DNA of 63,210 nucleotides, filler included, from Craspedostauros australis (GCA_030167865.1; 21 parts of 21 records of this genome joined end to end with filler, not necessarily neighbours in it), one strand, 5' to 3'; shown: positions 5,029-60,991, counted from the whole stretch's first letter. Notes: generated from the letters alone by a model not told the origin. Numbers and translations: made by a program.

Positions 5029-6123
5029 AACAAGGACAACAAGGACAACAAGGACAACAAGGACAAGGGTAGCAAGAACAAGGACGACAAGAAGGTCGAC
5101 AAGAAGGAAGCCGACAACAATCCACCAGCCACTGAGGCTGCACCCGTCGAAAGTGCACCACTCCCAGTCGAAGAGGACGACACCAACGCCGACCAACCAC
5201 AGCCAACTGAACCAGCTCAGCCTCAAGAACCAGTCGACATCCCACCTATCGTCGATGAGGAAGCTGAAATCAACGACGCACTCGATGAGGCTATCGATGA
5301 GGCCATCGATGAAGACATGGAGGAGGACATGGAGGAAGAGACCGAGGAACCATCCACCAGCGCACCAACAACGCCCGCTCCATCCACACCCGCACCAACC
5401 AACCTGTCACCCACAGCATTCCCCACCACCTCACCCACCTTCAAACCAACGGCCTCCTTCGCACCAACATGGATGCCCACATCAAGACCAAGCGCTCCAA
5501 CCAGCCACCCAACACGATCGCCCAGCGTCATGCCGACATCCATGCCAACCACCACACCCACCATCACACCGAGCACCAACCCATCGTCGACCCCATCCGC
5601 CGCTCCACTGCGATCCACGTGCTACATCGGAACATACAAGGATGTGTACGAGTGGTGTGACAACGAGGGCATGAACTGCTGCTCCAACGGAGCATACAGC
5701 TGCTGGTGGGAGGGCGTCGCCACCGTGTGCGAAGGATCGTGCAACGGCATGTCCGCATGCTACAGCATCAACGAGGGAGCTCTGATTGAGGAGAAGTCGT
5801 GCACAGGATACTCGGCATGCAAGTACCTCGGCGAAGGCGCCGACGTCGGCATGGACTCCTGCAACGGTCGTCACGCCTGCATGCTGGCCAACGGAAGCAT
5901 CGGCGATGGCTCTTGCAACGGCGGATACCCAGCAGGATCCAACTGTTACCAGGCCGACGAGGCCATCGGCGACAACTCCTGCAACTTCTACGAGAATCCT
6001 CGCAACTATCCGGGTGGATCGTACGCATGTCTGTATGCCGATGATGAGATCGGCAACAACCAGTGCAACGTGTTCTTCAGAGACTCGACGTGTGTTGGTA
6101 CACCGAGACCAAGTGGTGAATAG
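5029..6123 (+). CDS. Extracellular PT-rich protein with C-terminal Cys-rich SCxGxxAC repeat domain, 5' truncated
   Basis: The frame is open from the contig start: (NKD)4, an acidic stretch, PTxx repeats, then CCSNGAYSCWWEGVATVCEGSCNG... It is a paralogue of 7342..9432. Confidence 0.85.
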   Translation, partial: NKDNKDNKDNKDKGSKNKDDKKVDKKEADNNPPATEAAPVESAPLPVEEDDTNADQPQPTEPAQPQEPVDIPPIVDEEAEINDALDEAIDEAIDEDMEEDMEEETEEPSTSAPTTPAPSTPAPTNLSPTAFPTTSPTFKPTASFAPTWMPTSRPSAPTSHPTRSPSVMPTSMPTTTPTITPSTNPSSTPSAAPLRSTCYIGTYKDVYEWCDNEGMNCCSNGAYSCWWEGVATVCEGSCNGMSACYSINEGALIEEKSCTGYSACKYLGEGADVGMDSCNGRHACMLANGSIGDGSCNGGYPAGSNCYQADEAIGDNSCNFYENPRNYPGGSYACLYADDEIGNNQCNVFFRDSTCVGTPRPSGE

Positions 6124-6881
6124 ATGCATTGTGTTGCATCACACATTGACAATAGGCTGCACGTTGATACGCTGCACTTGGATGCGCCGCACAAATAGCG
6201 CCGCCAATGTCATCACCATGATCATCAGGATTTCATCCTGCACACCACACGCATCATGCGCATCATGCGCATCCGACATCCATAGCTAGGCATCTGTACT
6301 TTAGAATACACCACCAGTATCATATCTCTTTTGTCGTGTTTCTCATATCATCTTTGCCGTCATCGTCAGCATCATCGTCAGCATCATCGTCATCACCATC
6401 ACCATCATCATCACCAGCATCTTCATCATCCTCGTTCGATCGCCCGATCGCCTGATCATCGCATTCTTTGGTCGGATCCCTCCCAGCTTCATCTTGTTCG
6501 TTCATTGGTTTGGTGCCATTTCTGTGAGTGTTTGACATTCTTCTGTTCGTGAGTATGGTAGTGACTGAATCAACCCATCCAGTCATGGTTTGTCATCTCG
6601 AACAACTCAAACAACTCAGACGTTAAAGACGTTAAACATGACACATACGACTCGTTGGAGTACTTAGAAGTACTCTACATCAGACTAATTCGTTGTACTT
6701 CGGTGGGCTTCGACAGGTTTCGGAACGGTTTCGGAACGGTTTCCCTCTTCCTTCCTTTCTTCTTTCTCCCTTGTGACCGTTTGAGACACAATTTTGGCCG
6801 AGTCGCGCCAGCCGGGTATCCGTGACATCATGTTTTGTCCCGAATTGTGGAAGTTGTGTTGTTGGTTTGGTGGAAAGATGA

Positions 6882-13605: not shown

Positions 13606-13799
13606 CACACTCCTGCAACAAGTTTGGGAATCATCACACAGCAGCACATAGCAGGCAGCAGACAGCCGACAGCACAGCCAACAAGTCGAATTCAAGGTTN
13701 NNNNNNNNNNNNNNNNNNNNNNNNNNNNNNNNNNNNNNNNNNNTTAATTAATTAANNNNNNNNNNNNNNNNNNNNNNNNNNNNNNNNNNNNNNNNNNNN

Positions 13800-16700
13800 C
13801 TCACCCAAACATCCATCAACATGCTCCGCGCTGCCGATCGCGCCAATCCGGCGTCCAAGAGCCGCTCCTTGTGGCCGAGCGGGATCAAGTACAAAGTCAC
13901 CGATCGCATTATCCGTCACGATCCGTTCATCGCCAACAAGACCAACGGCAAGAACAAGCAAGCCAAGAATGGCTTCCTTTCCAGCCTCATGTCCGGCCGC
14001 TCATCGTCGTCGCCACCTTCATTCGATGAACCCAACATCAAAGGTTCGGACCTCGCCTTCCTCCAGTATACATCTGGAAGCACGGGCGACCCCAAGGGCG
14101 TGATGGTGACCCACAACGCACTGAGAGCCAACATCGAGCTCGTGCAGAGCTACTGGTTCGAGTCATTCAAAGACCAGCTGGGTGGCGCAAGCCAAGTCCC
14201 GGAGCGCATCGCGACATGCTCCTGGCTTCCCCAGTACCACGACATGGGTCTCATCGAGATGGGCATTGCGCCATTGGCAGGTGCCTACCGTTCTCATATG
14301 ATTTCGCCGGTTGCTTTCATCCGCAACCCATTGCTCTGGGTTGATCTCATGTCGCAGCACAAGTGCCATATCAGCGCCGCCCCTGACTTCGGTTATCGGC
14401 TGGTCACCCGCAAGTACAACGAGGCCCTGGAGAGCCCCAAAGGGCAGACTAATCCCATCCCCAAGCTGGACCTCTCGAGCGTGCTTCATCTCCAGAACGC
14501 CGCTGAACCAATCCGGCTTGACACCGAGAAGAACTTCGCCGATGCATTCTGTCAGTACAACTTGCGCGAGGACTGGTTCCTCGCAGCGTACGGACTGGCG
14601 GAGAACGTGGTTGGCGTCAGCTACAACCATGGCTTCCATCTCTCAACCATGAGACCAGATGAAGATCTCCAACCATTCGTCGCCATCGCCCAGCGCAGCA
14701 ATCTGCACAGCTCGGTCGACATCATCATCGTTGACCCGGACATTTGTGTGCAACGTCCAGACAACGTCACTGGGGAGATCTGGGTCGCAGGAGCGTCCGT
14801 TACTGCTGGATACTACAATCAGCCACAGCTCAGCAAGGAGGCCTTCCAAGCCACAATGCGAGTGGAGGGTGATTCATCGTCCGATGCCAATGCCAGTGCC
14901 GATGGCAAGATGTACTTGCGCACAGGTGACTACGGATTCTATCAAGACGACTACCTCTACATCTGCGGCCGCAAGAAGGACATCGTCATCGTCAACGGTG
15001 TCAACTACTATCCCCAAGACATCGAACACGCCGTCGAGGAGGCATCGTCCGCTGTCCGTTCAGGTTGCGTGGCCGCCTTCTCGTCCGACGATTCAGGCAA
15101 CGATGGACAGCTGGAGATCGTCTTTGAGATCCGAGCTAGCCATGTGAAGGATGCCAAGACGGTCTGCCAACAAGTCAGGAGGAACGTCATCTCACAGATC
15201 GGATTGACACCGGCAACAGTCGCAGCTGTGGAAGAGCGATCCATCTCCAAAACGACGAGCGGAAAGATCCAGAGACGCCAAAGTCGTCACCGTCTGCACG
15301 CCGGGTCGCAAAAGATGGTGTTCGAATCGAAGGGAGCGCTTGACATCACGGGCAAGCAGAAGGACATTGAAAGTCAGTTGACAGATGAGACTCTCTCGGT
15401 GGACAGCACCATCGGCCAACGTTCTGGGTTTGGCGCGATGGGCTTGTGTGAGATCGTGAAGAGCTGCACAGGATCCAACACCAAGCCCGACGATGAATGG
15501 AAGGATATCGGACTATCCTCCATGATGGAGCTGGAGCTCCGCCAGTCCCTTTCTCAGCGATACAACACGGAACTTCCCGCAAACGTCTTCCAACTCTTCC
15601 CGAAAGTTCTGGATCTCAATACTTTCCTCGAGGCATCAAAGGGAGAGCCCCTGCCAACCAATCTCCCAACCCTCAAGAGGATCGTTACCATCCCAAACGA
15701 AAAGCCTCTGTCGCAAACATCCGTCGCAATCATCCAGGCCATCGGTGTGCTCGTCGTGGTCCTCATCTTCTCGTTCCCCACCGTCCCAGTGTACGAAGTT
15801 GGAAAGGCCATTGCCGACTCCGACGTTCTCTCCGGTCATGAATGGGTGCTGCTCCCATTGATCGTTCCAGTCTGGGCCATTACGCTCACCTTCGTGATCA
15901 TCCTCTCGAAGTGGATCGTCATTGGCAGATACACAGAGGGGTATGCCAATCAAACCAGCATCTATTTCATCCGATGGTGGTTCGTTGACCGGTTGGTCGA
16001 TATCTGGGAACGATTCGTCGGCCGCATCATCGCTGGCACACCTTTGATGATGCTTTTCTACTATCTGATGGGTGCCGACATCCATCGCTCGGCCAGCGTG
16101 AACGGGACCGTCCGGGAGTTTGACCTGGTCAAGGTCGATGCAAACGCCATGGTCAACACGAACATCCGATGCCGGGTCTTCGGCCCATGGAAGGATGAGC
16201 AGCAGGGTCCCAGCGTGAAGTTCCGCAAGACTCAAGTTGGATCCAATGCTGCGGTCAATGGCGTCTTGCTTGCTGGGGTCAGCGTCGGCTCTGGCTGCCA
16301 AGTGCAGCGTGTGACCGTGTTGGTGGAGGGATCTCAAGCACCACCAAACACCTCAATCAGAGGCAACCCAGCATTTGTCGAGGCTCCTTCGTCGACTCTC
16401 AAGGGCGATGATGAAGAATCCGCAACCGCAACAGCGACTGGGGATACGACATCCACTACATGCACCAGTCCATGGATCGTGCTGGGAATGATGAAGCTTC
16501 TTTGGCTGCTCGTCGAGCTGTGCTTCGCCTTCGCATGCTTCGTGGGTGCTGATCAGTTGGTCGGAGATGGGCTTCCAGATTGGAGGTACTCCTCCATCAT
16601 TTATTGGATCGCCCTCTTTGGCCTCACGTCCGTCTGTTTCTTGATCACCAGCATCATCCTCAAGTGGGTGCTGATCGGAAAGAAGCAATCCGGTCCGGCG

Positions 16701-17837
16701 CGAACAGGAACGTTCTCCAGGTTCGCTGACTGGGCTTGTGACTTCCATTTCTACATCGGGACAACTGTATTCCTCGACTTGACATTGTTCTCCCAGTTTT
16801 GGAACCTCGTTCTCATGGCGCACGGCATGGACATAGACATGCGATCGAGGGCGATGACAGTCCTGTTCCCCCCATCCAAGCTGGATCTCATCACGGTCAG
16901 GCGATCTTTCGTGTCCTTTTGCGACCTCGATGTCCAAGAGGGCGACCAGTACAAAGCAATCACTATTGAAGATAGCAGTATCGGCATGTCACTGACTTGC
17001 GGCCCTGGTGTGACCATCCGCAAAGCCATGGTGACTCCCTGCACCCACGTAACCAGCGATATGATCAATATTGACCATCATCCTAACAATGTGCCTCTCT
17101 CCACATTGGAATTCTTGATCCTCAACATCAACAACACCCTGCTGCATATCATCATCCTTGCGGCAGTGACAGCCAGCCTCGTCCCATCATATGAGCTGTT
17201 GGCGGTCGCACTCAAACCAGACACGACAACGGCGCTGGTTCCGATCTTCATCTCTGCATCCACCATCATCCAGACCATCATCTGGCTCGTTCTCTTGCGG
17301 GTAATTGAGACCATCTCCATCGCGGGAAGTACCACGCGTGGAGGACCATGGTGCATTTCATTGCATATGGTCTACTACACTTGCTGCCAGTTCTTCCAGG
17401 CTTGGTCCTTCGAGTCGGTTGTTTGGGGCACACCAATCATGAACGCCCTGTTGCGATTCCGAGGAGCGACCATCCAGGGAAAGATGCTGTACTTTGGATT
17501 CCGCATCTATGAAGCTCCGCTGTTGACTTTTGCTGATAGGGCAGTGATGGATGACGCGATCATCTGCGGTCATTACGGTGTATTTTCCACGCTGTCGTTG
17601 GGAACATCCTACATCGATGGTCTGATGCACCAGATGTCGTTTGCGCTCATGAGGAAGGGCTCAGCAACGAAGGGCGCCGCCTTGGTGGAGCACGCCCCAT
17701 GGAAGATGGTCAGCGACATGCAAGCATCAGACAAAAGGAAATCACTGCCATCGTCCGACACCTTGCTATCCGAAGAGGGGGAAGGACGCAAGGACTCTCA
17801 GGATCCAGCGGATGATACCCGCGTACCTGATGTCTAA
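13800..17837 (+). CDS. NRPS-like fatty acyl-AMP ligase - acyl carrier - Pls/TIGR02353-type membrane C-terminal domain protein, 5' truncated
   Basis: FAAL motifs AFLQYTSGSTGDPKG, SWLPQYHDMGLI, YGLAE, GEIWV, LRTGD, GRKKD..NYYPQDIE and KTTSGKIQR. Carrier motif IGLSSM (Ser 15519-15521). Three pairs of TM helices are each followed by a KWxxIG and/or GTP..MGAxI/hexapeptide-like segment. Confidence 0.9.
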   Translation, partial: LTQTSINMLRAADRANPASKSRSLWPSGIKYKVTDRIIRHDPFIANKTNGKNKQAKNGFLSSLMSGRSSSSPPSFDEPNIKGSDLAFLQYTSGSTGDPKGVMVTHNALRANIELVQSYWFESFKDQLGGASQVPERIATCSWLPQYHDMGLIEMGIAPLAGAYRSHMISPVAFIRNPLLWVDLMSQHKCHISAAPDFGYRLVTRKYNEALESPKGQTNPIPKLDLSSVLHLQNAAEPIRLDTEKNFADAFCQYNLREDWFLAAYGLAENVVGVSYNHGFHLSTMRPDEDLQPFVAIAQRSNLHSSVDIIIVDPDICVQRPDNVTGEIWVAGASVTAGYYNQPQLSKEAFQATMRVEGDSSSDANASADGKMYLRTGDYGFYQDDYLYICGRKKDIVIVNGVNYYPQDIEHAVEEASSAVRSGCVAAFSSDDSGNDGQLEIVFEIRASHVKDAKTVCQQVRRNVISQIGLTPATVAAVEERSISKTTSGKIQRRQSRHRLHAGSQKMVFESKGALDITGKQKDIESQLTDETLSVDSTIGQRSGFGAMGLCEIVKSCTGSNTKPDDEWKDIGLSSMMELELRQSLSQRYNTELPANVFQLFPKVLDLNTFLEASKGEPLPTNLPTLKRIVTIPNEKPLSQTSVAIIQAIGVLVVVLIFSFPTVPVYEVGKAIADSDVLSGHEWVLLPLIVPVWAITLTFVIILSKWIVIGRYTEGYANQTSIYFIRWWFVDRLVDIWERFVGRIIAGTPLMMLFYYLMGADIHRSASVNGTVREFDLVKVDANAMVNTNIRCRVFGPWKDEQQGPSVKFRKTQVGSNAAVNGVLLAGVSVGSGCQVQRVTVLVEGSQAPPNTSIRGNPAFVEAPSSTLKGDDEESATATATGDTTSTTCTSPWIVLGMMKLLWLLVELCFAFACFVGADQLVGDGLPDWRYSSIIYWIALFGLTSVCFLITSIILKWVLIGKKQSGPARTGTFSRFADWACDFHFYIGTTVFLDLTLFSQFWNLVLMAHGMDIDMRSRAMTVLFPPSKLDLITVRRSFVSFCDLDVQEGDQYKAITIEDSSIGMSLTCGPGVTIRKAMVTPCTHVTSDMINIDHHPNNVPLSTLEFLILNINNTLLHIIILAAVTASLVPSYELLAVALKPDTTTALVPIFISASTIIQTIIWLVLLRVIETISIAGSTTRGGPWCISLHMVYYTCCQFFQAWSFESVVWGTPIMNALLRFRGATIQGKMLYFGFRIYEAPLLTFADRAVMDDAIICGHYGVFSTLSLGTSYIDGLMHQMSFALMRKGSATKGAALVEHAPWKMVSDMQASDKRKSLPSSDTLLSEEGEGRKDSQDPADDTRVPDV

Positions 17838-18325
17838 TCGCCGATCTATTCTCTACATTGGCCGGTATCGTCTGAAGAGGATGATCAATCTCATGCGATC
17901 AACACGATAGAGAAGGCAAAGGAGGTGCATACCATTGTGAAGCGAAGTGAAGTGTTCTGCTCCAAGTCGATTCTATCCACATAGTTGTGCGAGCAGCAGA
18001 GAGAGTAGAGCCTAGCAGAACAGTCTACACATTCTGTGATGTCAGCATTGCTGATCTATCTAAACGGACATAATTTATCGTACACAGACACACCCGAACG
18101 GGCCGATCGGACACGCTCTGTGAGGTCATTTCTTGTCTGTCGTTGTAGTTCATGTCCGATCGAAAACTCGAACGAACAGCTTGTTCACCATCCGCACGTC
18201 TCGCTTGTTTGGGTTAACTGATGATCGCGACGCAAGGAGATGAAAGGAGACGTCGGATTGGCATTGGAATCTTTCGAGAAAACTGACGAATGTTCTTGGG
18301 GTTGGGTGTGCTCCGTTCCAGGTAC

Positions 18326-18530
18326 TATTGGAGCGTGAGCGAAAATGGACATCGAATCAAACAGGTCGAAGATGTCACGCTGAGCACAGAAAGCGCGAGA
18401 GCACAAGCAACACAGAGGATGACCGATGAGAACGGGTCAGCCGCTGTCATCAACAAGAACATCAACAAAGACAAGAGCAACAGCAGAAAAGCTCATAATC
18501 CCAATTAGGTTACACCATCAACATCATCAT
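18326..18530 (+). repeat. Second copy of the diverged repeat at 13395..13605
   Basis: Alignment by eye, roughly three quarters identical. Confidence 0.75.
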
Positions 18531-18737
18531 CTGTATCACCACATTCCGTTAGTTTATCCCTTCATGACCTAGGGGATTACTTCGATCCAATATAAATTTC
18601 ATTGTCACTCCATTCCGTTTTTGACCGCAACTTTTACNNNNNNNNNNNNNNNNNNNNNNNNNNNNNNNNNNNNNNNNNNNNTTAATTAATTAANNNNNNN
18701 NNNNNNNNNNNNNNNNNNNNNNNNNNNNNNNNNNNNN

Positions 18738-22688: not shown

Positions 22689-23261
22689 AACGCTCACGCT
22701 CCCTTTGTTGGTGCAGGGACACCCGGCAAATGCATTGAAACGTGTGTCGTTTGACTCGTTTGACTCGTTTGACCATAAGACCCACTCGAGTGAACGAAGG
22801 TGCAGTCGTGCCTGATCGTGACTTAAACTTTAACAAAATAAGTACATATTCGGAATCTACGTAAAATTTTGTCGAGGGACATTTGATTTAAACATCGGGA
22901 GAGTTGTGGATCAAAAGTTATAGACCTTGCAATAGTTTTGGTCTTCGGCCGTTGTAGACCTTCCTTAGACTTCGCTGGGTATCGCCAAAACTCGCTGATG
23001 ATGTCACACCTGTTCCCATTTTGAATTATTTTTCGCTTGCTATCTGGTTCTGACACGATTCACAATTTCCCACGTCTCATTTTCCTTCAATGTTTCCGCA
23101 CTTTCGACTGCTTGTTTTGCCGCATGTGGATGCAAATCATCATGGATTTACTGCAACATTTNNNNNNNNNNNNNNNNNNNNNNNNNNNNNNNNNNNNNNN
23201 NNNNNTTAATTAATTAANNNNNNNNNNNNNNNNNNNNNNNNNNNNNNNNNNNNNNNNNNNN

Positions 23262-25777
23262 AGGTCGTGATCGACGAAGATTGAGTAACAGTCGTTCAAC
23301 CACGATGAGACCTCTTCGTCAGAACAATCCGCCAGCGAACGCGAACCCAATCCTCTGTTTTCCGTTGGGAAAGTCACCCACATATTGCGAAATACAGGAT
23401 TCAAGGCTTTTACAGTAGCATCCTTCACGCGGCCCGCGGCTTTCTCAGCAGCAAGAGCATCTTTGGCGCGCTGCAAGGCTTCTTTAGTAGAATCCATGAT
23501 GCGCTGCTTGTCCATGCCGCTCTCGACGCAAGTCATCATCGACTTGTGGAAGTACACCCGAGAAATTCCGAGATCCCCTGGAAGCTGTGCCGGGTGGGTA
23601 CCCTTGAGAGACCAAAAGAGATGGCCGGGGCCGTCTTCCACAGATTTCTCTCCACCGATCGTTTTGCATGTGTAGTGGGTTGGCTGGGTGTCATCCGGGT
23701 GTGGTTTGATTTTCATCCCGACCTTGCTCAGAGCAGCAATGATGTCTGCTTCCTGCTGCTGAATCGTGTCAGAATTGGGACCATTGGCGGGAGCAGCAAC
23801 GACGCGCCCGTGTGTATCCTTCTTCACGACGGAGGACGCAGCGATGGCGGCCCCGGCCAGCAACGCAGTGAGAGTCTCAAAGCTGGTCGAGGTTGTTCCG
23901 AGAAACGATTTCTCAGCCGCAGTTGCTTCACCGCCTTGGATGAGCCAAAGGCAAAGGAGCTGCATGGCACCGGTGAGCGCGAATGGACTTGCCTGCGGCT
24001 TGCTCTCATCCTCAACCGTGAGTGGCCTTGCGGTGACTAAGCCATAATCGACGACCAACCGACGCATGATGGAACCGCCCAGGTCACCCTTGAAGCGTTG
24101 GAAGGTGATCCCGTAGTCCATGTTGTTCAGTTGAGTATCGGTGAGCGGTTTGCTGAAAGCTTCATTCTGTTGGAAAAGAAGAGCCGCCAAAGCCCGGGAT
24201 GCTGTGAGCCGCGCAAGGTACGGATTGTGCACCAGAGCTTTCATGCCATTGCTTTCCATGAAGATGGCGAAGGTTTTGGAAAGGATGGCATTCTGCTCGT
24301 ATTCATTCTCACTTGACTTCTTTCGCTGGCCACGGTTGATGTTTTCTTGACTTGTTGACACCCGCATGTAGATTGAGATCATCCGCGCGTTGGAATCAAC
24401 GATGGCCTTGAGAAGAGGGGAATGCTCAAGCTGTGCGTACTCTGGTATGATGGTATTCGTGACATCTTCCACGTATTCGCGGCGAAGAACGTGGTAGACG
24501 TGTGCGACATTCTCCTTTGCAGAAATCTTGCGGTGATCGAAGTTCTTGTGGTTTGATCCCACCCGTGCTTGGTCGGCACCGGTGCCTGCCACAGAGAATA
24601 GGACTTCGATGTCAATGTGCTTGAGAAAACGGGGGAGTTTGTTTGCATTTGAGGAGCCTTGTGGTGCTCCCGCTGCAAAGGGATTGACTTGCTTCATGGC
24701 CTCTCCGGCGCACATGTGCAGGATGAACTTCCCCAGATCCGTTCCAAAGTCTTTGTGGCTGTCGATGATAGCCCGGACGAAATTTGGGGACTTGCTTGCT
24801 TCGTCAATCCCAACGACGATGAAAAGTGTGGTCTTCTTTTGCATATCCTTATCCAACGCTTTGAGAAAGTTGGCAAGCCTGCCGAGACTTTTTTTGTCTC
24901 GCGTGAGGACCGATTCGACTTCACCCTTGAGTCGCGCCCAGGATTGGCCCCTTCGGTCTCTCTTGACCTCACGAACATCCGGTGAATCGAGAAGTTTCAC
25001 ATCGTCGGTGTCGAGCATGATGGTGAACAGAGCGTCTCTGGTGAATGCGCTCGCCGCAAGCTCCACGGTCTTGCCGCTACCACTCTCTTCGTAGTACACA
25101 TGAACCAGCTTGTGCGTGCGGATGTCTGGTGGGGTGGGCGCCGCAATGAAGACTGTTTCGGGGGCCATTTCGCTATTGCCTCCATGTCGAAAGTTGGACT
25201 TGCCGATGTAGTGTGCGTGGCCAGTAGCTTCATCGCTGATGGTGTGCGAGGTGTACTGTAGACCACGAAAGCCATTGGGGTCTTTACCGCGGATCTTCGC
25301 CAACAGCTTGAGAACTGATCGGCGTGGGTTCTTAGGATCGGCGAGTGTGTGATCGTCGTTGGGTTTCCACAAAGCGTTGCGGATGCACTCGGGGATTTCT
25401 TGATGGAGAAGCCGAGATGAGAGCCATTGTTTGGTCAAGATTGGAGGAAGCTCGTTGACGGATGAAAGGAGGTCTTCCAAACTTTGGATGTCGCCACTCT
25501 TGTCGACCTGCTCAAGAATGCTACTCCTCCAAAATGCTTCTCCCGAAAGTTGGTATTTCACTTCAACGTCTGTTGGGGGCTTGTCTCCCTTTCGCAGGTG
25601 TTTTACGATGTTTTCCTCCAGACGTTGCTTCAATTCTTTGGGTACTTCGCTCCACTCGCCGGCCCAGAAGAGCACATTGCCGAAGACTGAGTCAAGATCG
25701 ATAGGTGTTGCTTGATCATCTTCAGCCGTTGGCGCTTGAGTGCCGTCGAGTGTCGTCAGCAGTGACGTGTTGTTCAT
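23262..25777 (-). CDS. Large P-loop NTPase-like protein, Crinkler/RHS (CR)-effector-like, 3' truncated
   Basis: The ORF exceeds 830 aa, with Walker A-like EESGSGKT, Walker B IVVGIDEA and downstream FSVAGTG. Confidence 0.6.
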
Positions 25778-30055: not shown

Positions 30056-31530
30056 CCCTCCGGCGACGAAGCCAATGATGAGACAGGTGTCACCCCTCCG
30101 AATACACCAGCGAGGTCTACACATGACACACCATCCAGATCTCCACCAAACAAACCAAACAAGCGTGACATAGCTAGAAAGGAGAGGATCCGACGTCACG
30201 AAGCACGAGGCAGGAAGGGAGAAGCTAATCCCAAGTCAACTGCAGGGAAGAGTATTCCCAGAGCTCTGCGCGAGCTCGCAGACTTCAACGAACGAGGTCG
30301 AAAGGAAGAAGGCTATGAGAGCGAACCATCATCCGATGAGGCGAATGACGAACTCAGCGACGAGACGATCGATGATTCCAACAACGAAACTACAGATGAC
30401 GAAGAAATTGCAGATGAAGGAGAGATCGAGGTCACTCATCATAGCACAACAGGACTGTACGGAATGAATGCAATCATTACCGAATCACCAGCGATCGACA
30501 TCGGATTGTCGATGCAGGACGAGAACAAAGAACCAGAGAAGCACATCGAACCAACGACATTCAATGGAGCCTTCAATCATCCAGATCCCATCCATCAAAA
30601 GGGATATCGAGCAGCCATCAAGAAGGAGTTCGACTCCATGGATACACGCAAGGTGTACAGCAAAATCAAACGAGACGCCATCCCACGCGGCCGCAGATGC
30701 TGCAAATGCAAATGGGTCTTCAAGCTGAAGCGTGACGGCACATATCGAGCGCGGCTCGTTGCATGTGGCTATTCACAAATCGCAGGAGTGGACTTCCAAG
30801 AGCATTACTCACCCGTCATCCACGACGTGACCTATCGGGTCATGATGGTGATCATGCTGATCAAGAAGATGGACTGCGCACTCGTCGATGTCGTAACGGC
30901 ATTCCTACACGGAGACCTCGACGAGGAGATCTACATGAACTGTCCTAACGGGATGGATCATCAACCAGACGAAGCCCTGACCCTACACAAGCCAATCTAC
31001 GGACTTGTGCAGAGCGCCAGGCAATGGTTCAAGATGTTGGTATCGACCCTCAAGAATATCAACTTTGAACAGAGCGCAGCAGACCCGTGCCTGTTCTACA
31101 GGAAGACGAACGAAGGAAGCATGATCGTGGCCATCTACGTGGACGATTGCTTCTGTTGCGGAGACTCCAAGGCACTGGAGACATTCCTGAAGGATATCCA
31201 AGGCAACAAGTTCAAGGTAACAATCGAGCGCGGACTCGGAGATTACCTCAGCTGCAACATCGAACTGAACCACGACAAGACTAGAGCGACACTGCGTCAA
31301 CCACATCTCATCCGACACCTCATCGAAGAGTTCAGAACCAAGGTTGAGAAGATGCAACGCTATGGGACACCGGGAACCCCGGGTCAAATCATTGTACGAC
31401 CATCCGAAGATAACGGATTGCAGAAGGTCGGACCGGAAGAACATGCCAAATACCGCCGAGGCGTTGGTATGCTACTCTTCCTCATCAAGCACTCGCGACC
31501 AGATATCGCAAACCCTGTGAGGGAACTCTC
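30056..31530 (+). mobile_element. Ty1/Copia pol fragment (reverse transcriptase, RVT_2)
   Basis: KWVFKLKRDGTYRARLVACGYSQ, VDVVTAFLHG, IYGLVQSARQW, YVDD, SRPDIA. The frame is open from the contig start and is interrupted at 31531. Confidence 0.97.
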
Positions 31531-31712
31531 TGTCGAGATGTACATGTGAGTATACGTCAAGATGTACGTGTATATGTGCATCGTTCATCCGCTATTCTCT
31601 CATACGCACTTGGACGGTATAACTACACTCGTGTCAATAGTATACTGTGATTCGTCAGAATTACAGGGGAAATGGAACACACGAAAAGGGGCAAGATTTC
31701 TGGAGGAAATTT
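31531..31712. mobile_element. End of a family D LTR-like element inserted in the Copia RT
   Basis: Begins TGTCGAGATG and is the reverse complement of ~27605..27787. Confidence 0.85.
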
Positions 31713-33230
31713 NNNNNNNNNNNNNNNNNNNNNNNNNNNNNNNNNNNNNNNNNNNNTTAATTAATTAANNNNNNNNNNNNNNNNNNNNNNNNNNNNNNNN
31801 NNNNNNNNNNNNAAATTATAATCGTAGATGTCCTCCCTTGTCTGTTGTAGTGAGTTCGTGTTTGGTGTCCTGGTTTGAAAAAACGCGAGCACAGCATCAC
31901 ACTGACTGGTTCATCGTGTAAGTGCTATGCTTTACTGTGGGGAACACTATTTGTCAAAAAATGCATCTCGGACCCACTGACAGTGCAGTGTGGAGAACGG
32001 GTAAGGACGTTCGTCCCCATGGGGCGACATGCTTCCTGGATGAAAAGAGGATGGACTAGGCAACCAGACACTGTTGCTTGCGCAAAACAATCCGAGTGTG
32101 TCCTAATGAAACGAACGAAATCACCAGAGAAACATCTGGACTGTGCAATCACACGCACGTTCAGCGGAGGGGTGGGAGGATGTTCACAGCAACANNNNNN
32201 NNNNNNNNNNNNNNNNNNNNNNNNNNNNNNNNNNNNNNNNNNNNNNNNNNNNNNNNNNNNNNNNNNNNNNNNNNNNNNNNNNNNNNNNNNNNNNNNNNNN
32301 NNNNNNNNNNNNNNNNNNNNNNNNNNNNNNNNNNNNNNNNNNNNNNNNNNNNNNNNNNNNNNNNNACACTGGGCAAGAGTATGATGAGACAATGCATGTT
32401 TGTTGGAGTGCTGCGCAGCAATGAATTGTGGCGCGAAAAAAAAAACACCCCCACGGGAACCGCGGTAAATACGTTTTCGGCGTCGTTTTCGGATGGGACT
32501 GCCTTAGTAGTCCATTTAGTCCGTGCTCTTGGCATCACAAAACGCAAAGGTACTACTGTAGACGTGTGATCGACGTCTCGTGGGCGAGGCTATGAACACT
32601 AGGAGCTACTTCAGTTGCCATTGATTGCCCAGTGCAGGACAGCTCGACGGGGCTTAGNCAGCGTCTGCGCCATCAATTTTTGGCTGGATGTCTTTGGACA
32701 TGTTGCCACCANCNGTGTNGAGGCCAATCGCCCAGGTACGCGCTTTCTGGGCTTGATCTTCGTTGTGCAGTCTTGCTTCAACAGCGGAAACAGTGAGCGC
32801 AACCACGAACGCAGGTAGAGGGCAAAGCCTCGCGCGTACTCTGTGGTACAGGAAGCACATCTGTCCTGACCAGAATAGCCTCCGAGTGCGAGCAGACACA
32901 TCCCGCTCGCCGAATGTGACACGACACGTTCCGTTTGCAAACTGAGGCAAGGGCGATAGAAAGAGAAGGTGGATGGAGTTGCGTGAACTTCGAAGCGGTA
33001 TTCGCCAGTACGATGATTGATGCACGGGGCTGCTTGGCTGTCCAAATGTCCGAAAGCAATTTCTTCATCTTGATGAGAACGAGTGCTTTGTCCTACAGCA
33101 ACAGGAGATGGCGGAACAACTATGCCTTCTNNNNNNNNNNNNNNNNNNNNNNNNNNNNNNNNNNNNNNNNNNNNTTAATTAATTAANNNNNNNNNNNNNN
33201 NNNNNNNNNNNNNNNNNNNNNNNNNNNNNN

Positions 33231-41825: not shown

Positions 41826-44800
41826 CTACAAAAGAAGAACCCATCCCAACACAATTGCTGTCGCCGACACAGCGAACGCCGCAGATGGCATTCTCCGCGA
41901 GGAAGCCGAATAGCTGGATCGAGCGATGCTGGCTGTCGGCGCTTCTAGAGACTGAGTAGATTCACTCGTCATCGTAGGAATCTCGCTTGGCATGCCACTT
42001 GATCGTACCGACGGTGATACCGTGGGTTGGTGACTCGGAGAATTTGAAGGTGACGGTGACGGCAAGGTCGATGGAGCCCAGGATGGGGACGACGTAGGGG
42101 ACGGCGATGGATCCCAGGACGGTGTAGAGGAAGGCAACTGCGATGGAGTGGCCGTTTCCGCGAAGGCTGCCGCGACCTCGTCCTCGGTGTAGCAGGTACC
42201 GAAGGCAGTATCATCGAAAACTTGGAACAGGCTAGTGCGACTCACGGTAGGTGTGCCGCACAAATCAAACACATCGCCACCCATCACGTAGGAGCAGTCC
42301 AACCGCTGTGCCGAGGTCGCGCCGTCAGGGCATTGGACGAGGGCGCATGAGGAGCAAGGCCGGACGTCAAATTCTGACAGTGCGATGGCACCCTGGCACG
42401 TGGCTTCCTTGTGGTCTATGATCGTTGCCACCAGTCCTTGTCTGCCGTTTGTGTAATTGTACAGCCGTATGGATTCGATGCGGTCGCCGTCATCGTCGAA
42501 GGAATCCACAGATGTCAGCATCATGCATGCCGATTGGTCTTGGTTGCACATGCGACCACAGGTGGTTAGGCACAGCAAACTGACCTCCTGATCCTCCCCC
42601 TCATAGCAGAAACACTCCAGGTTGCTATTCGCCTTGCCTCGTGCTTCTTCGCAAGCAATTATCCCAGCAGGAGTGGGCTGGATCATCAGGCCGAAGGTCC
42701 CGCGCTCCACGTAGGACGCGAACAGGCTGTAGCCACTGACGTAGATCATGTACTTCCGCCCTTTCTCCGCAAAGAAGTCGATGTCTTGATGACTCCATTC
42801 GCTGGTGGCAACGCATTCGAATGAATCGCAGTCACCAACGCGAACAGAAACGACGGTGGATATATCAGTCACGTCATGGTCCGTCGAAACTCGGAGCATC
42901 TCACCATCTCCCACGATGGTGTACCAGAGCCCATTCCTTCCATTTTCCTCACAGACGTCCACCTCTCCCGTCTGCACGTGCTGCGTCGAATCGATGATGA
43001 GAGTGCCATTTGCCTCGAGGGGCATTGCGTTGCTGCAAATGTCATGAACCGGTGACTTGTCGACGCAGGAACCAAACCCGTCCATTGAGAGAGCCTGGAA
43101 GAGACCATCGTTCACAACGGTCGGAGCGCAAAAGTTGAATGCGTCTGATTCACCTTCGTGGTTGCAGGACATCGACGGCTTCGTGGTGCCATCATCGCAT
43201 TCGAGGACATCGCAAGTGCAATCACGCGGAAAGGCATTGACGTAGCAAAAAGAGAACGAACCCCACGTGCTCACTGAGACGGTGAATTCATCCTCTCTGC
43301 CAACTGTGTACTCGAACAGCTGGTGCGTGTCGCGAACTGCACCAGAAGACTCGAAATCTGTGGCGTACGACTTGTCAACGCAGATGCTCTCATCTGCGTT
43401 GCAATAGTACCCGCAGGTCGTCTTGCATTCCATGCTCACGCCAGCCGTTGATTGATCGAGGCTGCACGAGCAGGCAACGTCAGCGGCCATTTCCAGCTCC
43501 TCCTTCCTCGCTTCGCATGATGCTTGCGATGAGTAGACGGTGCATACATCTGCACCTCCAACGATGAGGTTGTGTAACGCGTTGGACCACCACGCGTTGT
43601 GGCTGTCTGTGCCGATGCTCTTGGGATCGAGGACGGCGACCTTCATGGGGGCAGCTGTGTCTTCGTAGCACAAATCGATCGGCTCCAGCGTTGGGTGCAC
43701 GTTCGAGCAGTCCACGATCGGTGCGCCGTCGCAGGATGGCTGGGTTTCGCAAGCGCTGCAGGCTGTGCCATTCACCCGAACAATGCAACGCCCATTCTTG
43801 TCAACCTCAAAGGAAATGGCCTCTGCTGATCCTTCGGCGTAGATGGTTGTGTTCTTGTGTTCGACGCCACCGCTCCATAGAAAGGTTGACTCGTACTCCT
43901 TGTTGCTGCAAAGTGCCCCATTCACATTGCAGTATCTGCAATGGTCGATACAGACCAGTCGAAATGCGTAAGAGCCATCGTACTTGGAAGGCGTTACGTA
44001 CTCACAGTTGCAGTCCACACCGACGGTGGCCTCTTCGAATTTCTGCTGCGCATCGTAACAACGATCGAAGGGTGTCGGTATCTCCTCCGTGATGGTGAGC
44101 TCGAAATCTCCCGTCAGTCCGATACTTGCAGACGAGACTTGGATTAAGTAGGCCACGCCTGGTTCCGAAACCCATTCAATCGTGGGATGTTCACCAGAAT
44201 CACAGAAACTTCCGTGGGAGGAATAGTCGATGCACTGCGAAGAGTCGCATCCCTCGTTGCCATCAGACCGCAGGACGGCAAGTGATGTATGGAACGTTGT
44301 GCGATCGGAGCACGTGGAAGCGATGAATTTGTTGCCATTACCGTTGATGGAGTACCAAACCGAAGAAGAGGCGTCGTGGTACCTGCAGAATTCTTCAGCA
44401 TCGGCAAGCGCACCGCCGTTGTTGCCGTTCGTGGAGGCAACACCGTCTTTGAAGTTCAGCGCAATCGCACTGTGACAGCTGTCGTTGGCAGATTCGTTGG
44501 CAACGAGTTGTCCTACAGTCATGGTGTAACCCCCGACTCTGTCATCAAACGACGACACGGAGAGATGGTACATCGTCCCATTCGTCGAGTCCCACAACAC
44601 GGCACTTGCCTTCCCGGGGTTTGTTGCGCAGTGCTCGTAGTAGCTCGACTCAACGCATTCAAAGTTGCTTGAACTGCATCCATCGAAACCGACAAGTGCT
44701 TGTACATCCATCACCGTTTCGATTTCGCTCTCGTCCTTGGAGCAGGTGGTGGCGTACATTGCATTGCCCGTCCCCATGACGTTGTATGTATCAACGTGAT

Positions 44801-45551
44801 CACCAGACGAGTATGAGTAGCAACCAGCCGTGGTCTGGGCAACCTCGTCGTTGCGTCCAGCGATAGTGACCTTGGTCTGACCATCCGCGAACGTGACTTC
44901 CGTGGCTGTCGCGCAGATGTCCACCCCCTCGTCACTCCATTGGAGGTGACGTGAGGGTTGCGCTTGGCTCAAAGACCGCACATTCCTTCGTTCCGGGTCC
45001 TTGCGATGGTGCAGATGGCGATGTTCTCGTTCTCGTTGTTTTGCTTGGTGCTGTTGGCCAAGAACATCGTCGTTAGGACAAACGAGGTGATACTCTGCGA
45101 GCAAACTGGACGAAGCCGACGGACCGCCTGCGGTCGCCAGTACGGTGTTGGCCTCCGGTGGTGCCATGGAATGTTCACGAGATCCGCCATGGCGGAACGT
45201 TGGATGGTCCTTCAGAAATCTGGCGCAGGCCTTTTGGTTGGTCTGATATCTGCGCACCTGATGCTCGAAAGAGTGGCTTTCGGGGATCGAGGAGACCGCT
45301 GCGCCAGGCGCTGATGCCGATACGCTGTCGGCCGCTCTGCCATGGCTTGCTCCCTGCAGCTTCGCGGCAGCTTTCTCGAACGAGTCTGAAGCGGTGGCCA
45401 ACGAGCCATGCGTTGTGCTCGAATCCAATGCAATGGCAGTGGGGGAGGATGCGGAAAGAGTTGGCACGAGCAGAGCGAGCGTCGCCCAAAGGCTGACCAT
45501 CCGCCCGATCCAGCAGGGTGATTTCCTCGTCCTCTTCGTCTTCATCGTCAT
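41826..45551 (-). CDS. Secreted, probably GPI-anchored Cys-rich multidomain surface protein (1241 aa)
   Basis: Signal peptide and RSL/RHL motifs. Three (N/H)DxCxxA...WYxxxGxG PPC-like repeats and three CxC...C..CxxCN...C modules, then a PS/PT stalk and a hydrophobic C-terminus (AFAVSATAIVLGWVLLL-stop). Confidence 0.88.
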   Translation of the reverse strand: MTMKTKRTRKSPCWIGRMVSLWATLALLVPTLSASSPTAIALDSSTTHGSLATASDSFEKAAAKLQGASHGRAADSVSASAPGAAVSSIPESHSFEHQVRRYQTNQKACARFLKDHPTFRHGGSREHSMAPPEANTVLATAGGPSASSSLLAEYHLVCPNDDVLGQQHQAKQREREHRHLHHRKDPERRNVRSLSQAQPSRHLQWSDEGVDICATATEVTFADGQTKVTIAGRNDEVAQTTAGCYSYSSGDHVDTYNVMGTGNAMYATTCSKDESEIETVMDVQALVGFDGCSSSNFECVESSYYEHCATNPGKASAVLWDSTNGTMYHLSVSSFDDRVGGYTMTVGQLVANESANDSCHSAIALNFKDGVASTNGNNGGALADAEEFCRYHDASSSVWYSINGNGNKFIASTCSDRTTFHTSLAVLRSDGNEGCDSSQCIDYSSHGSFCDSGEHPTIEWVSEPGVAYLIQVSSASIGLTGDFELTITEEIPTPFDRCYDAQQKFEEATVGVDCNCEYVTPSKYDGSYAFRLVCIDHCRYCNVNGALCSNKEYESTFLWSGGVEHKNTTIYAEGSAEAISFEVDKNGRCIVRVNGTACSACETQPSCDGAPIVDCSNVHPTLEPIDLCYEDTAAPMKVAVLDPKSIGTDSHNAWWSNALHNLIVGGADVCTVYSSQASCEARKEELEMAADVACSCSLDQSTAGVSMECKTTCGYYCNADESICVDKSYATDFESSGAVRDTHQLFEYTVGREDEFTVSVSTWGSFSFCYVNAFPRDCTCDVLECDDGTTKPSMSCNHEGESDAFNFCAPTVVNDGLFQALSMDGFGSCVDKSPVHDICSNAMPLEANGTLIIDSTQHVQTGEVDVCEENGRNGLWYTIVGDGEMLRVSTDHDVTDISTVVSVRVGDCDSFECVATSEWSHQDIDFFAEKGRKYMIYVSGYSLFASYVERGTFGLMIQPTPAGIIACEEARGKANSNLECFCYEGEDQEVSLLCLTTCGRMCNQDQSACMMLTSVDSFDDDGDRIESIRLYNYTNGRQGLVATIIDHKEATCQGAIALSEFDVRPCSSCALVQCPDGATSAQRLDCSYVMGGDVFDLCGTPTVSRTSLFQVFDDTAFGTCYTEDEVAAAFAETATPSQLPSSTPSWDPSPSPTSSPSWAPSTLPSPSPSNSPSHQPTVSPSVRSSGMPSEIPTMTSESTQSLEAPTASIARSSYSASSRRMPSAAFAVSATAIVLGWVLLL

Positions 45552-59542: not shown

Positions 59543-60991
59543 GTACAAGGCTCTCATGGACCCCCTGTCCGAGATGTGAAGCCGCCAGCGCCAGCACCAA
59601 CCACAACAACAAAGCGCGAAGCAACAAACAACGAGAAGGGCATTGTGGATGCCATGGGGTCGTTGGGGTTGAGAACTGTTGATCGCGCCATGAGCCCCGC
59701 TCTGGACATGGTGAAGCTGGGTTCATTCACAGAGCGTGCCTTCGATCCGCTCACAGCTGCCAGTGGACATGGTCGCTATCGCGAGGGGATTCACGTGTTT
59801 GTGGTCCTTGACCCGAAAGTGGATCCAGAATCAGTGACACTCAGCACAGAAGATGAAGGATGGACACTCAAGCTCACGTACAAGGTACCAAGAATGTATT
59901 TTACAGCTGAATGCATCTATGGGGTTTATGGCTATGATGCTGGCTTCTCGACCAGCCTTGCTGCTGCCAAGAACTACTTTCAGGACCTCGCTCGCAAGGT
60001 CACTGACGAAGCAGGAGAGCTCGTCGTCACCTGCCACTTCAACCTCCCCCGCAAGATCGACAGCCTCTTCCGCAACGTCTTGACGAAGGAGCTCGAAGAC
60101 ACCAACTTCGAGGTAGTCGAGAACTACCTCGGCACGACCTCTTTGGTCACATTCTGCTTCTTCCAGGAGCATCACAACCAGCTGCAGTTCGGGACAGTCG
60201 GTCGTCGCGGCGTCAAGGGGTTGGACGGATCTGTCCGTGCCTTCTCTTCAGCCATGCCTCCAAAGCCTGCAACTGTGCCAGCAGCAGGCTTTGCCCATCC
60301 ATTTGGTGGCCCAATGCCACCTCGGCCTCATGGTGGTACAGCTGGTGGTCAGCAGCCTGCTCCATTTGGATCTCCAAGCCCCAATCATGGCGCCTTCGCG
60401 ACTCCTCCTGCCACCAACCACTTCACTGGGCAGATGGACGCCATGCGGCAGCAGATGGAACGCGAGGCTGCAGCGCGCATCGCTCAGGCCCACGAGGAAG
60501 CCCGGAAGACCCGTGCCGAATGCGAGGCTCTCCTGCGTCAAGCAAAAGAGCGCTCTCATATGGATGCCCAAGCGAAGGCGCAGTTGGAGCGCGAAGCGAC
60601 AGCGAAGTTTGCGCAAATGCGCAACGAAGTTGCTGCGCGCGAGTTTCGTGCCAACTCGCGCATGGCGGTGCTCGAGGAGCAGCTGCGCACGGCTCGGAAC
60701 TTGGAGGCCATGGCAGCTGCCAATCCTGGCCTGCGGTCTCCCAGTGGGAGCATCCCCGATGCCGCCATCAGTTCCTCCCAATCCAGCAGCCAGGAGAGTG
60801 TTGCCACGCACACCATCGAGATGGAGATGGTGGGCCTGACTGGAAGTGTGCGCCCCCGCAACGATGAAGATGCCCCACGCCGTGATGATGTGATCCGCAG
60901 CCGCGTGGGCGATTTGGGTGCAGGCGGCAGTGGAACTGGCGGATTGAGTGGCAGCGTGGTGTCCACAGATGGGCGAACAGAGCACGCATAA
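59543..60991 (+). CDS. Hypothetical protein, 5' truncated: globular beta-rich domain, Pro/Gly linker, coiled coil
   Basis: The frame is open from the contig start for ~480 codons, with heptad-like MRQQMEREAAARIAQAHEEARK. Confidence 0.7.
   Translation, partial: VQGSHGPPVRDVKPPAPAPTTTTKREATNNEKGIVDAMGSLGLRTVDRAMSPALDMVKLGSFTERAFDPLTAASGHGRYREGIHVFVVLDPKVDPESVTLSTEDEGWTLKLTYKVPRMYFTAECIYGVYGYDAGFSTSLAAAKNYFQDLARKVTDEAGELVVTCHFNLPRKIDSLFRNVLTKELEDTNFEVVENYLGTTSLVTFCFFQEHHNQLQFGTVGRRGVKGLDGSVRAFSSAMPPKPATVPAAGFAHPFGGPMPPRPHGGTAGGQQPAPFGSPSPNHGAFATPPATNHFTGQMDAMRQQMEREAAARIAQAHEEARKTRAECEALLRQAKERSHMDAQAKAQLEREATAKFAQMRNEVAAREFRANSRMAVLEEQLRTARNLEAMAAANPGLRSPSGSIPDAAISSSQSSSQESVATHTIEMEMVGLTGSVRPRNDEDAPRRDDVIRSRVGDLGAGGSGTGGLSGSVVSTDGRTEHA

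Follow-up and report, generated by a model that had tools for sequence, protein, structure and literature searches.

We analyzed a 63,210-nucleotide stretch of the Craspedostauros australis assembly (GCA_030167865.1), hereafter the window, and focused on an open reading frame (ORF) at 13821..17837 on its plus strand, which encodes 1338 amino acids and ends at a TAA codon (17835-17837). The frame is already open at the first base of its contig (13800), from which 1345 codons lead to the stop. The sequence predicts a eukaryotic (diatom-clade), single-module, membrane-anchored synthetase, comprising a fatty acyl-AMP ligase (FAAL)-type adenylation domain, a carrier in cis, and a C-terminal module of six helices and three left-handed β-helix (LbH) units homologous to that of the poly-amino-acid synthetases Pls and PosA. 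The features of the locus, with residues numbered from the ATG at 13821, are as follows:

13700..13799, no strand: scaffold junction, an N44-TTAATTAATTAA-N44 linker that cuts the 5′ end of the gene (linker count and flanking N)
13800..18637, no strand: the sole contig holding the gene, 4838 bp (linker boundaries)
13800..17837, plus strand: open frame from the contig edge to the TAA, a 5′-truncated coding sequence in which the ATG at 13821 is an internal Met (ORF scan, homolog alignment)
13800..15308, plus strand: FAAL-type adenylation domain, lacking approximately 120 conserved N-terminal residues (Pfam, NCBIfam, alignment, PDB)
14067-14099, plus strand: YTSGSTGDPKG, motif intact
14220-14255, plus strand: SWLPQYHDMGLI, residues 134-145, motif intact
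14589-14603, plus strand: YGLAE, residues 257-261, motif intact
15264-15266, plus strand: codon of Lys482, intact
15444..15617, plus strand: carrier (PP-binding) domain (Pfam, just under its cut-off)
15510-15521, plus strand: GLSS, residues 564-567, carrier motif
15519-15521, plus strand: Ser567, predicted phosphopantetheine-attachment site (alignment)
15705..15932, plus strand: helix pair 1, residues 629-662 and 674-704, ending in a KWIVIGRY motif common to Pls (hydrophobicity, model, hhalign)
15933..16466, plus strand: soluble unit 1 (C1-like), predicted as two helices and an LbH, carrying W720 and D768 (repeat analysis, model, Foldseek, VIA-align; model residues 90-280)
16467..16682, plus strand: helix pair 2, residues 883-915 and 923-954, ending in KWVLIGKK (hydrophobicity, model)
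16683..17102, plus strand: soluble unit 2 (C2-like), the most diverged from Pls, with short periodic strands (repeat analysis, model, hhalign)
17103..17333, plus strand: helix pair 3, residues 1095-1131 and 1136-1171, KW motif lost (hydrophobicity, model, hhalign)
17334..17720, plus strand: soluble unit 3 (C3-like) with the candidate catalytic His1251 in the motif CGHYGVF, codon 17571-17573 (repeat analysis, model, hhalign, conservation)
17721..17834, plus strand: C-terminal tail, disordered, poorly conserved and acidic/Ser-rich (pLDDT below 50 at model residues 701-738; alignment)

Downstream of the stop, the contig (13800-18637) holds no further ORF of at least 100 amino acids.

Sequence comparison indicates that the gene is incomplete. 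The residues preceding the ATG, read through it as LTQTSIN-M-LRAADRANP, match an internal stretch of the closest homolog, P0002 (LTQSIIN-M-LRLSDKANL), and 12 of 12 aligned homologs extend further upstream by approximately 120 conserved adenylation-domain residues; the conserved block TFATWYD...GDRVVLCYNFGL...VYPP belongs to this part beyond the contig edge. Likewise, the Pfam AMP-binding alignment is confined to profile positions 151-384 of 384. The gene is truncated because the contig ends, the assembled part representing its 3′ 90%. The ORF that an initial annotation had described as intronless thus exists, but only as a 5′-truncated gene fragment. With the gene cut by the edge of an unplaced 4.8-kb contig, the copy might be non-functional, namely a pseudogene, a partial duplicate or a scrap of uncollapsed haplotype. 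We regard this as unlikely: the frame stays open for its entire length, the invariant residues of the family are intact throughout the part present, the GC content at third codon positions (GC3), 0.69, exceeds the overall GC of 0.55 in the way that selection on a coding frame would predict, and the truncation falls exactly at the contig edge.

The adenylation domain is assigned to the FAAL type by profile comparison. FAAL models rank top in NCBIfam (PRK05850, 264 bits; PRK12476, 262; FadD32, 247; FadD21, 242), outscoring both the best long-chain acyl-CoA ligase model (PRK06187, 110 bits) and the amino-acid adenylation model TIGR01733 (100.6 bits); the FAAL scores lie under their full-length cut-offs because the N-terminus is missing. 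The 16 best PDB sequence matches are all FAALs or FAAL-like loaders, the nearest being a loading FAAL of a polyketide synthase (PKS), the Legionella and Escherichia coli FAALs, FadD32, FadD23 and FadD28. FAAL profiles align in a single stretch (query 74-491 against model 160-567) with no large deletion, as judged at the profile level, and profiles of fatty acyl-CoA synthetases align in two separate pieces. The ANL core motifs from A3 onward are present and invariant, the A1 and A2 positions falling beyond the contig edge. The FAAL-type assignment made initially from SWLPQYHDMGLI and YGLAE is therefore borne out, since the domain groups with FAALs rather than with acyl-CoA synthetases or amino-acid adenylation domains.

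FAALs hand acyl-AMP to holo-carrier proteins and not to CoA, and a carrier follows directly in the same polypeptide. The GLSS motif and its serine at 15519 are present as first described. All 13 aligned sequences have G564 and S567, and PF00550 is found in several homologs; the PP-binding score of the query itself is 20.4 bits, just under the Pfam cut-off of 20.8. Pfam detects no ketosynthase (KS), condensation (C) or thioesterase (TE) domain in the query protein, in agreement with the initial annotation, and no oxidase or aminotransferase domain.

Beyond the carrier, the protein contains six hydrophobic segments in three pairs, each pair followed by a soluble segment. hhalign resolves this layout as an internal three-fold repeat of units with two transmembrane helices and a soluble part: units 1 and 2 match with a probability of 97.5% (E 6e-12), units 1 and 3 with 97.6% (E 4e-12), and units 2 and 3 with 76% (E 2e-5). 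The Pls/PosA model TIGR02353 matches the C-terminal half at E 4e-16, with HMMER covering profile positions 19-310 of 695, at a score below the curated cut-off. As a reference set, we took five proteins from the exhaustive search that lie above this cut-off (606-686 bits) and carry true amino-acid adenylation domains, on which TIGR01733 scores 386-428 bits. Comparison of a 42-sequence alignment of the query's family with these five true Pls-type proteins using hhalign gave a probability of 100% (E 5e-79) over 860 columns; when the comparison was restricted to the C-terminal modules, the probability was again 100% (E 1.9e-67), over 652 columns and template positions 19-719 of 723. The motifs KWxxIGR, RWWF and GTP...LGA are common to the query's family and Pls. 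Profile homology thus indicates that the whole three-unit module is homologous to that of Pls/PosA, as a diverged relative and not an equivalog, and the Pls-type layout originally proposed, A-T-(6TM + C1/C2/C3), is supported beyond what the sub-threshold TIGR02353 match alone would suggest.

Direct sequence matches to LbH proteins are faint. In Pfam, the hexapeptide models remain sub-threshold (Hexapep_GlmU, 13.5-14.7 bits, cut-off 23.3; LbH_EIF2B, 13.3 bits, cut-off 54), and more distant relatives pass the PF00132 threshold. A PDB sequence search with the C-terminal half yielded only LbH matches at E 0.17-2.1, and all PDB matches of a true Pls-type protein lay in its adenylation-carrier part, including 7wew, the Pls adenylation domain; no solved structure of a Pls-type C-terminal module was found in these searches. 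An AlphaFold2 model of residues 601-1338, computed from the 42-sequence alignment (mean pLDDT 87, pTM 0.88), shows long helix pairs alternating with runs of short, evenly spaced strands. Foldseek ranked galactoside and maltose O-acetyltransferases as its best PDB matches (probability 1.00, target TM ~0.55), together with serine acetyltransferases. VIA-align, which is independent of Foldseek, matched LbH acyltransferases with a Z of 12.0 and an rmsd of 3.1-3.3 over 150-154 residues, sugar N-acyltransferases with a Z of 9-11, and the acyl-ACP-dependent LpxA and LpxD with a Z of approximately 7. The module is accordingly predicted to adopt the LbH acyltransferase fold. Unit 1 is matched directly, and units 2 and 3 are assigned this fold through the repeat analysis together with the strand pattern that the model shows. 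The model agrees with the published AlphaFold/RoseTTAFold model of PosA, in which, in the available text, six bent helices lie beneath three packed LbH domains (PMC10522769). Both similarities expected of the C-terminus, to TIGR02353 and to LbH enzymes, are hence present.

To place the module, we built a FastTree phylogeny (653 columns, midpoint rooting, several long branches flagged) from 132 of the 208 proteins that matched a hidden Markov model (HMM) of the module, namely those with an envelope of 560-900 residues; 76 partial or over-long proteins were left out. A single branch (SH-like support 99) separates all 81 FAAL-linked rows, with 23 unlabeled ones, from all 26 rows linked to nonribosomal peptide synthetase (NRPS)-type loaders and two unlabeled rows, so that one change suffices to explain the FAAL/NRPS label on the tree. 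The query protein is sister to P0002 (support 99) within a 76-row clade (support 100) that holds every named diatom sequence. On the tree, the FAAL-linked modules appear as a lineage of their own, sister to the Pls/PosA polymerases of bacteria and fungi.

The two lineages have 19 positions in common: Q639, P656, K697, W698, G702, W720, G751, D768, L769, G848, P850, G958, W971, G1002, L1023, G1055, G1203, G1215 and H1251. H1251 is the only histidine among them (present in 97% of FAAL-lineage and 96% of NRPS-lineage sequences) and aligns with the histidine of the Pls motif QTHLFEDR; D768 is conserved at 99% and 100% in the FAAL and NRPS lineages, respectively. The acidic positions of unit 3 that are near-invariant in the Pls lineage, equivalent to E1231, D1233 and D1239, are not conserved in the FAAL lineage, where E1231 is found in 57% and D1239 in 43% of sequences and a different residue occupies the D1233 position in 47%. 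Conversely, D723, R724, W729, E730, R765, E766, R785, F787, K892, E1125 and D1244 form a conserved set specific to the FAAL lineage. From this pattern, we infer that the catalytic core has been kept and that the acceptor site appears to have been remodeled in the FAAL lineage.

A word-indexed search retrieved full-length relatives of 1300-1560 amino acids with 35-41% identity and 95-99% coverage: 14 entries of Seminavis robusta, two of Chaetoceros tenuissimus (on contigs of 3.3 and 4.5 Mb), and others from brown algae and Chrysophaeum taylorii. Their source names are generic, such as "Putative fatty-acid--CoA ligase FadD21" or "hypothetical protein". An exhaustive phmmer search with the module alone recovered 970 representative clusters at E≤1e-3, of which 432 reach E≤1e-10 and 100 reach E≤1e-30. 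When the best 150 of the 970 clusters were typed with purpose-built FAAL-type and NRPS-type adenylation-domain HMMs, 61 proved FAAL-linked, 10 NRPS-linked and 79 neither, the last being mostly fragments shorter than 1000 amino acids. Further named FAAL-linked members comprise two complete ORFs of the choanoflagellate Salpingoeca kvevrii, a second Chrysophaeum protein and two more Seminavis proteins, which bring S. robusta to 16 family entries. Two of these, P0037 and P0041, lie on one contig and may be a single split gene model. The FAAL-linked lineage thus extends from diatoms and brown algae to a pelagophyte and a choanoflagellate, and all of its taxonomically placed members are eukaryotic (approximately 22 with an organism name, most metagenome matches being unplaced). 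The basal member P0182 is also assigned to a eukaryote because its contig neighbors encode RRM, RhoGAP, MORN and THOC3-like proteins. In a protein atlas, eukaryotic clusters (Chlorophyta, Bacillariophyta) rank first and bacterial Pls/PosA proteins next. Scans of prokaryote genomes with the query module and with P0207 returned no relative, such scans detecting near relatives only. The C-terminus of P0246, used as a bridge query, retrieved P0246 itself and 14 weaker partial matches, nearly all of the NRPS-type Pls-like kind. FAAL-linked paralogs P0196 (1776 amino acids) and P0246 (1745 amino acids) are both recorded on contigs of up to 107,122 bases; they may lie on one metagenome contig, possibly as tandem paralogs.

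These data bear on the origin of the gene. An intronless ORF of a family whose Pls/PosA enzymes are mainly bacterial could come from a bacterial contaminant contig, which we consider hardly credible and have rejected: the query falls inside the fully supported clade of named diatom sequences, homologs reside on the Mb-scale Chaetoceros contigs, the basal member has RRM, RhoGAP and MORN genes beside it, and no close relative was encoded among the prokaryote species representatives scanned. The bacterial origin that the initial annotation had suggested likewise finds no support, in that every placed FAAL-linked member is eukaryotic and the prokaryote scans, limited as they are, were negative.

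The same module also terminates larger proteins. P0207 has the architecture FAAL-T-KS-...-T-module; P0123 combines the module with FAD-oxidoreductase and α/β-hydrolase domains, and P0130 with two adenylation domains and an amine oxidase; P0030 is a further FAD/amine-oxidase-bearing relative. These architectures suggest a general off-loading function for the FAAL-lineage module in PKS-like lines of eukaryotes. On the eukaryotic metagenome contig L001, an α/β-hydrolase gene (5573-6556, plus strand) lies approximately 300 bp downstream of P0182 (1125-5276). A functional link to an α/β-hydrolase, encoded beside P0182 and fused after the module in P0123, was considered as a weak lead and not used; the two hydrolases are only 22% identical (E 2e-4).

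Taking the domain order, the homology and the conservation together, we favor, with moderate confidence, a self-loading membrane enzyme: its own carrier receives a fatty acid, which is then passed on, in a single transfer, to an acceptor. The FAAL domain would adenylate a fatty acid and load it as a thioester onto the phosphopantetheine of Ser567, and the carrier would bring the acyl thioester to a cytoplasmic, pseudo-trimeric LbH domain; the paired helices would put all soluble parts of the protein on one side of the membrane. In LbH acyltransferases, an interface histidine acts as the general base, and in Pls, carrier-bound lysine is the donor and a free amine the acceptor. By analogy, a single active site centered on H1251 of unit 3, to which D768 lies close in sequence register, might deprotonate an amine or hydroxyl acceptor, which would then attack the thioester. 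With an ordinary fatty acid, the outcome would be a one-shot N- or O-acyl transfer, with an acylated lipid or amide set free at, or across, the membrane; the module would thereby take over the release/transfer function that a TE or C domain has elsewhere. Such a general role fits the proteins described above, since the same module ends the larger lines P0207, P0123 and P0130, and it is in keeping with the published algal PKS genes that have "atypical LbH" and FAD domains (PMC10366177). Transfer in one shot is likelier than polymerization because an unfunctionalized fatty acid offers no nucleophile with which a chain could grow.

Iterative polymerization, one of the options raised in the initial annotation, has to be weighed against single transfer, given that the module is homologous end to end to proven iterative polymerases and has their histidine. 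Here the FAAL would activate a bifunctional amino- or hydroxy-fatty acid, and the module would add carrier-bound monomers to a growing chain that is itself free, yielding a polyamide or polyester extruded at the membrane; the FAD/amine-oxidase domains of P0123, P0130 and P0030 would be able to functionalize an acyl chain in this manner. The query protein itself has no such oxidase or aminotransferase domain by Pfam, its loader fits FAAL models and not amino-acid adenylation models, the unit 3 acidic positions of the Pls lineage are unconserved where the acceptor site is apparently remodeled, and in the PKS-like line P0207 a release role fits better. Polymerization therefore strikes us as rather unlikely. 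We hold an equally low opinion of its broader form, in which the FAAL-linked modules, as a eukaryote-specific sister lineage of Pls, would have kept iterative extrusion to produce oligomers or polymers of functionalized fatty acids, as amino- or hydroxy-acyl polyamides or polyesters, or to acylate extracellular polycations such as the long-chain polyamines of diatoms. If this were true, the approximately 16 Seminavis robusta paralogs would represent diversified secreted lipid polymers or signals in benthic diatoms.

The terminal position of the module, which occupies the place of a TE in every architecture seen, would also suit an enzyme that needs no external acceptor, with the LbH module hydrolyzing or cyclizing the acyl chain in a thioesterase-like manner and the helices merely anchoring it. 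To activate a free fatty acid only to hydrolyze it again would be futile. The known LbH enzymes found as structural matches transfer their acyl groups to amines or hydroxyls, and the acceptor in Pls is an amine, according to the part of the PosA report available (PMC10522769). We judge acceptor-free release quite improbable.

Several points weigh against the preferred single-transfer reading and the homology on which it builds. TIGR02353 scores the query at 58.5 bits against a curated cut-off of 423.1, and its relatives at 93-150 bits, so the query is no Pls/PosA equivalog; unit 2 has strongly diverged from Pls, and unit 3 has no KW motif. The structural matches to LbH enzymes map to unit 1 only. 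The phylogeny comes from FastTree only, with rows picked by similarity to the query and the NRPS lineage under-sampled. A catalytic role for H1251 is proposed on the grounds of conservation and analogy, and the greater likelihood of one-shot over iterative transfer is an argument from substrate chemistry and not a result. Finally, the query copy is incomplete at its 5′ end, so that only the part present can be called intact.

The remainder of the window reflects its construction from short unplaced scaffolds, approximately 21 in number, joined into a pseudo-molecule by six-frame stop linkers of the form N44-TTAATTAATTAA-N44. The sequence TTAATTAATTAA occurs 20 times in the window against 0 expected by chance, each copy flanked by 44 N on either side, at the following positions:

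1-63210, no strand: linkers at 1268, 4973, 10398, 12296, 13744, 18682, 23206, 26085, 27842 and 30000 (sequence)
1-63210, no strand: linkers, continued, at 31757, 33175, 34720, 40944, 47741, 50019, 52939, 56724, 59486 and 61427 (sequence)

The neighbors of the FAAL-Pls-like gene in the window sit on other scaffolds and therefore provide it with no usable genomic context; any neighborhood-based finding across a linker is consequently invalid. These other scaffolds carry ordinary eukaryotic genes (ankyrin, MORN, copia-type reverse transcriptase, cyclase domain). One of them, a small scaffold of its own, holds a 361-residue ORF (30464-31549, plus strand) with a copia-type reverse transcriptase match (RVT_2, E 3e-43), a retrotransposon fragment typical of unplaced repeats. 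Three further ORFs, at 41826-45551 (minus strand), 23210-25777 (minus strand) and 59576-60991 (plus strand), encode 1241, 855 and 471 amino acids, respectively, and have no Pfam match at E≤1e-5.

Pls-type enzymes are, to our knowledge, the only known synthetases that join carrier-bound monomers by a membrane-embedded, pseudo-trimeric LbH module instead of C or TE domains. The existence of a large lineage apart from Pls, in which the module is served by a fatty-acid loader, would widen the expected chemistry of the module from cationic peptides to lipids, and Ser567, His1251 and Asp768 define concrete points at which this can be tested. Diatoms are major primary producers, and lineage-expanded membrane lipid-transfer enzymes are a plausible source of undescribed lipids or signaling molecules in them. 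The family is real, large and uncharacterized; the query locus itself adds little, being one more, incomplete member on an unplaced scaffold. What the initial annotation observed is partly confirmed, and its interpretation is partly supported.

The family has not gone entirely unnoticed, since elements of it have appeared in print separately: diatom FAALs (PMC12820801) and algal "atypical LbH" domains (PMC10366177) are published, and literature searches revealed no characterized ortholog, nor did the open-access literature yield any characterized FAAL-linked Pls-type enzyme. In the available text of PMC12820801, the abundance of FAALs in diatoms is reported, with 16 in Seminavis robusta; if these are the same proteins as the 16 Seminavis entries found here, the family would explain most of the unusually numerous FAALs of diatoms. 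The main text of that survey, as available, contains neither "hexapeptide" nor "lysine" and mentions transmembrane regions only as a reason for exclusion from expression. The text supplements of FAALPred contain no TIGR02353, NRPS_term_dom, Seminavis or IPR012728, and the figure supplements on eukaryotic domain combinations may show the architecture. The eLife 2021 FAAL paper lists other unusual architectures, and FAAL-carrier-Pls-type is not among them in the portion available. For Chrysophaeum taylorii, the alga that also provides our FAAL-linked matches P0050 and P0217, PKS genes with "atypical LbH" domains, adenylation-like loaders and an FAD-oxidoreductase have been described (PMC10366177); the accessible sections describe no membrane helices, three-fold repeat or relation to Pls, and the query protein, for its part, has no KS. 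Neither PMC12820801 nor PMC10366177, in the text available, links diatom FAALs or atypical LbH domains to Pls. The PosA paper (PMC10522769), in the text at hand, surveys amino-acid-loading Pls-type enzymes, some of them from lower eukaryotes, and does not use the word "fatty".

Among known systems, the query is closest in layout to the enzymes of TIGR02353, Pls of Streptomyces albulus (ε-poly-L-lysine) and PosA of Acinetobacter baumannii (δ-poly-L-ornithine), which are likewise single-module A-T-(2TM+LbH)x3 proteins without C or TE domains and have in common with it the homologous C-terminal module, the motifs KWxxIGR, RWWF and GTP...LGA, and the unit 3 histidine. They differ in being loaded by an amino-acid adenylation domain instead of a FAAL and in belonging to a separate lineage of the tree; in the query, unit 2 is diverged and the unit 3 acidic positions of Pls are unconserved. 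Unlike Pls/PosA, the placed FAAL-linked members are all eukaryotic, and a plain fatty acid would not be expected to give a polymer. With LpxA, LpxD and the sugar N-acyltransferases QdtC, WlbB and AntD, the query has the predicted LbH fold (Z 7-12) and the logic of trimeric packing in common. In LpxA and LpxD, the donor is a carrier-bound fatty acyl thioester, the acceptor a hydroxyl or amine, and a histidine the general base. Each of those enzymes is soluble, assembles as a homotrimer with three equivalent sites and relies on a separate acyl carrier protein (ACP), whereas in the query a single polypeptide would contain the fused loader and carrier as well as six membrane helices and three LbH units that are not equivalent. 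FAAL loading systems, such as FadD32-Pks13, FadD28 and lipopeptide starters, place a FAAL-type domain ahead of a carrier, as does the query. The Aas-type acyl-ACP synthetase/acyltransferase fusion follows the logic proposed for the query, in that it activates a free fatty acid, tethers it and transfers it at the membrane; NF006386 is among the weaker matches to the adenylation domains of the homologs. In contrast to FadD32-Pks13, FadD28 and Aas, the downstream catalyst of the query is predicted to be a Pls-type LbH membrane module, and not a KS, a C domain or a PlsC/LPLAT-type acyltransferase.

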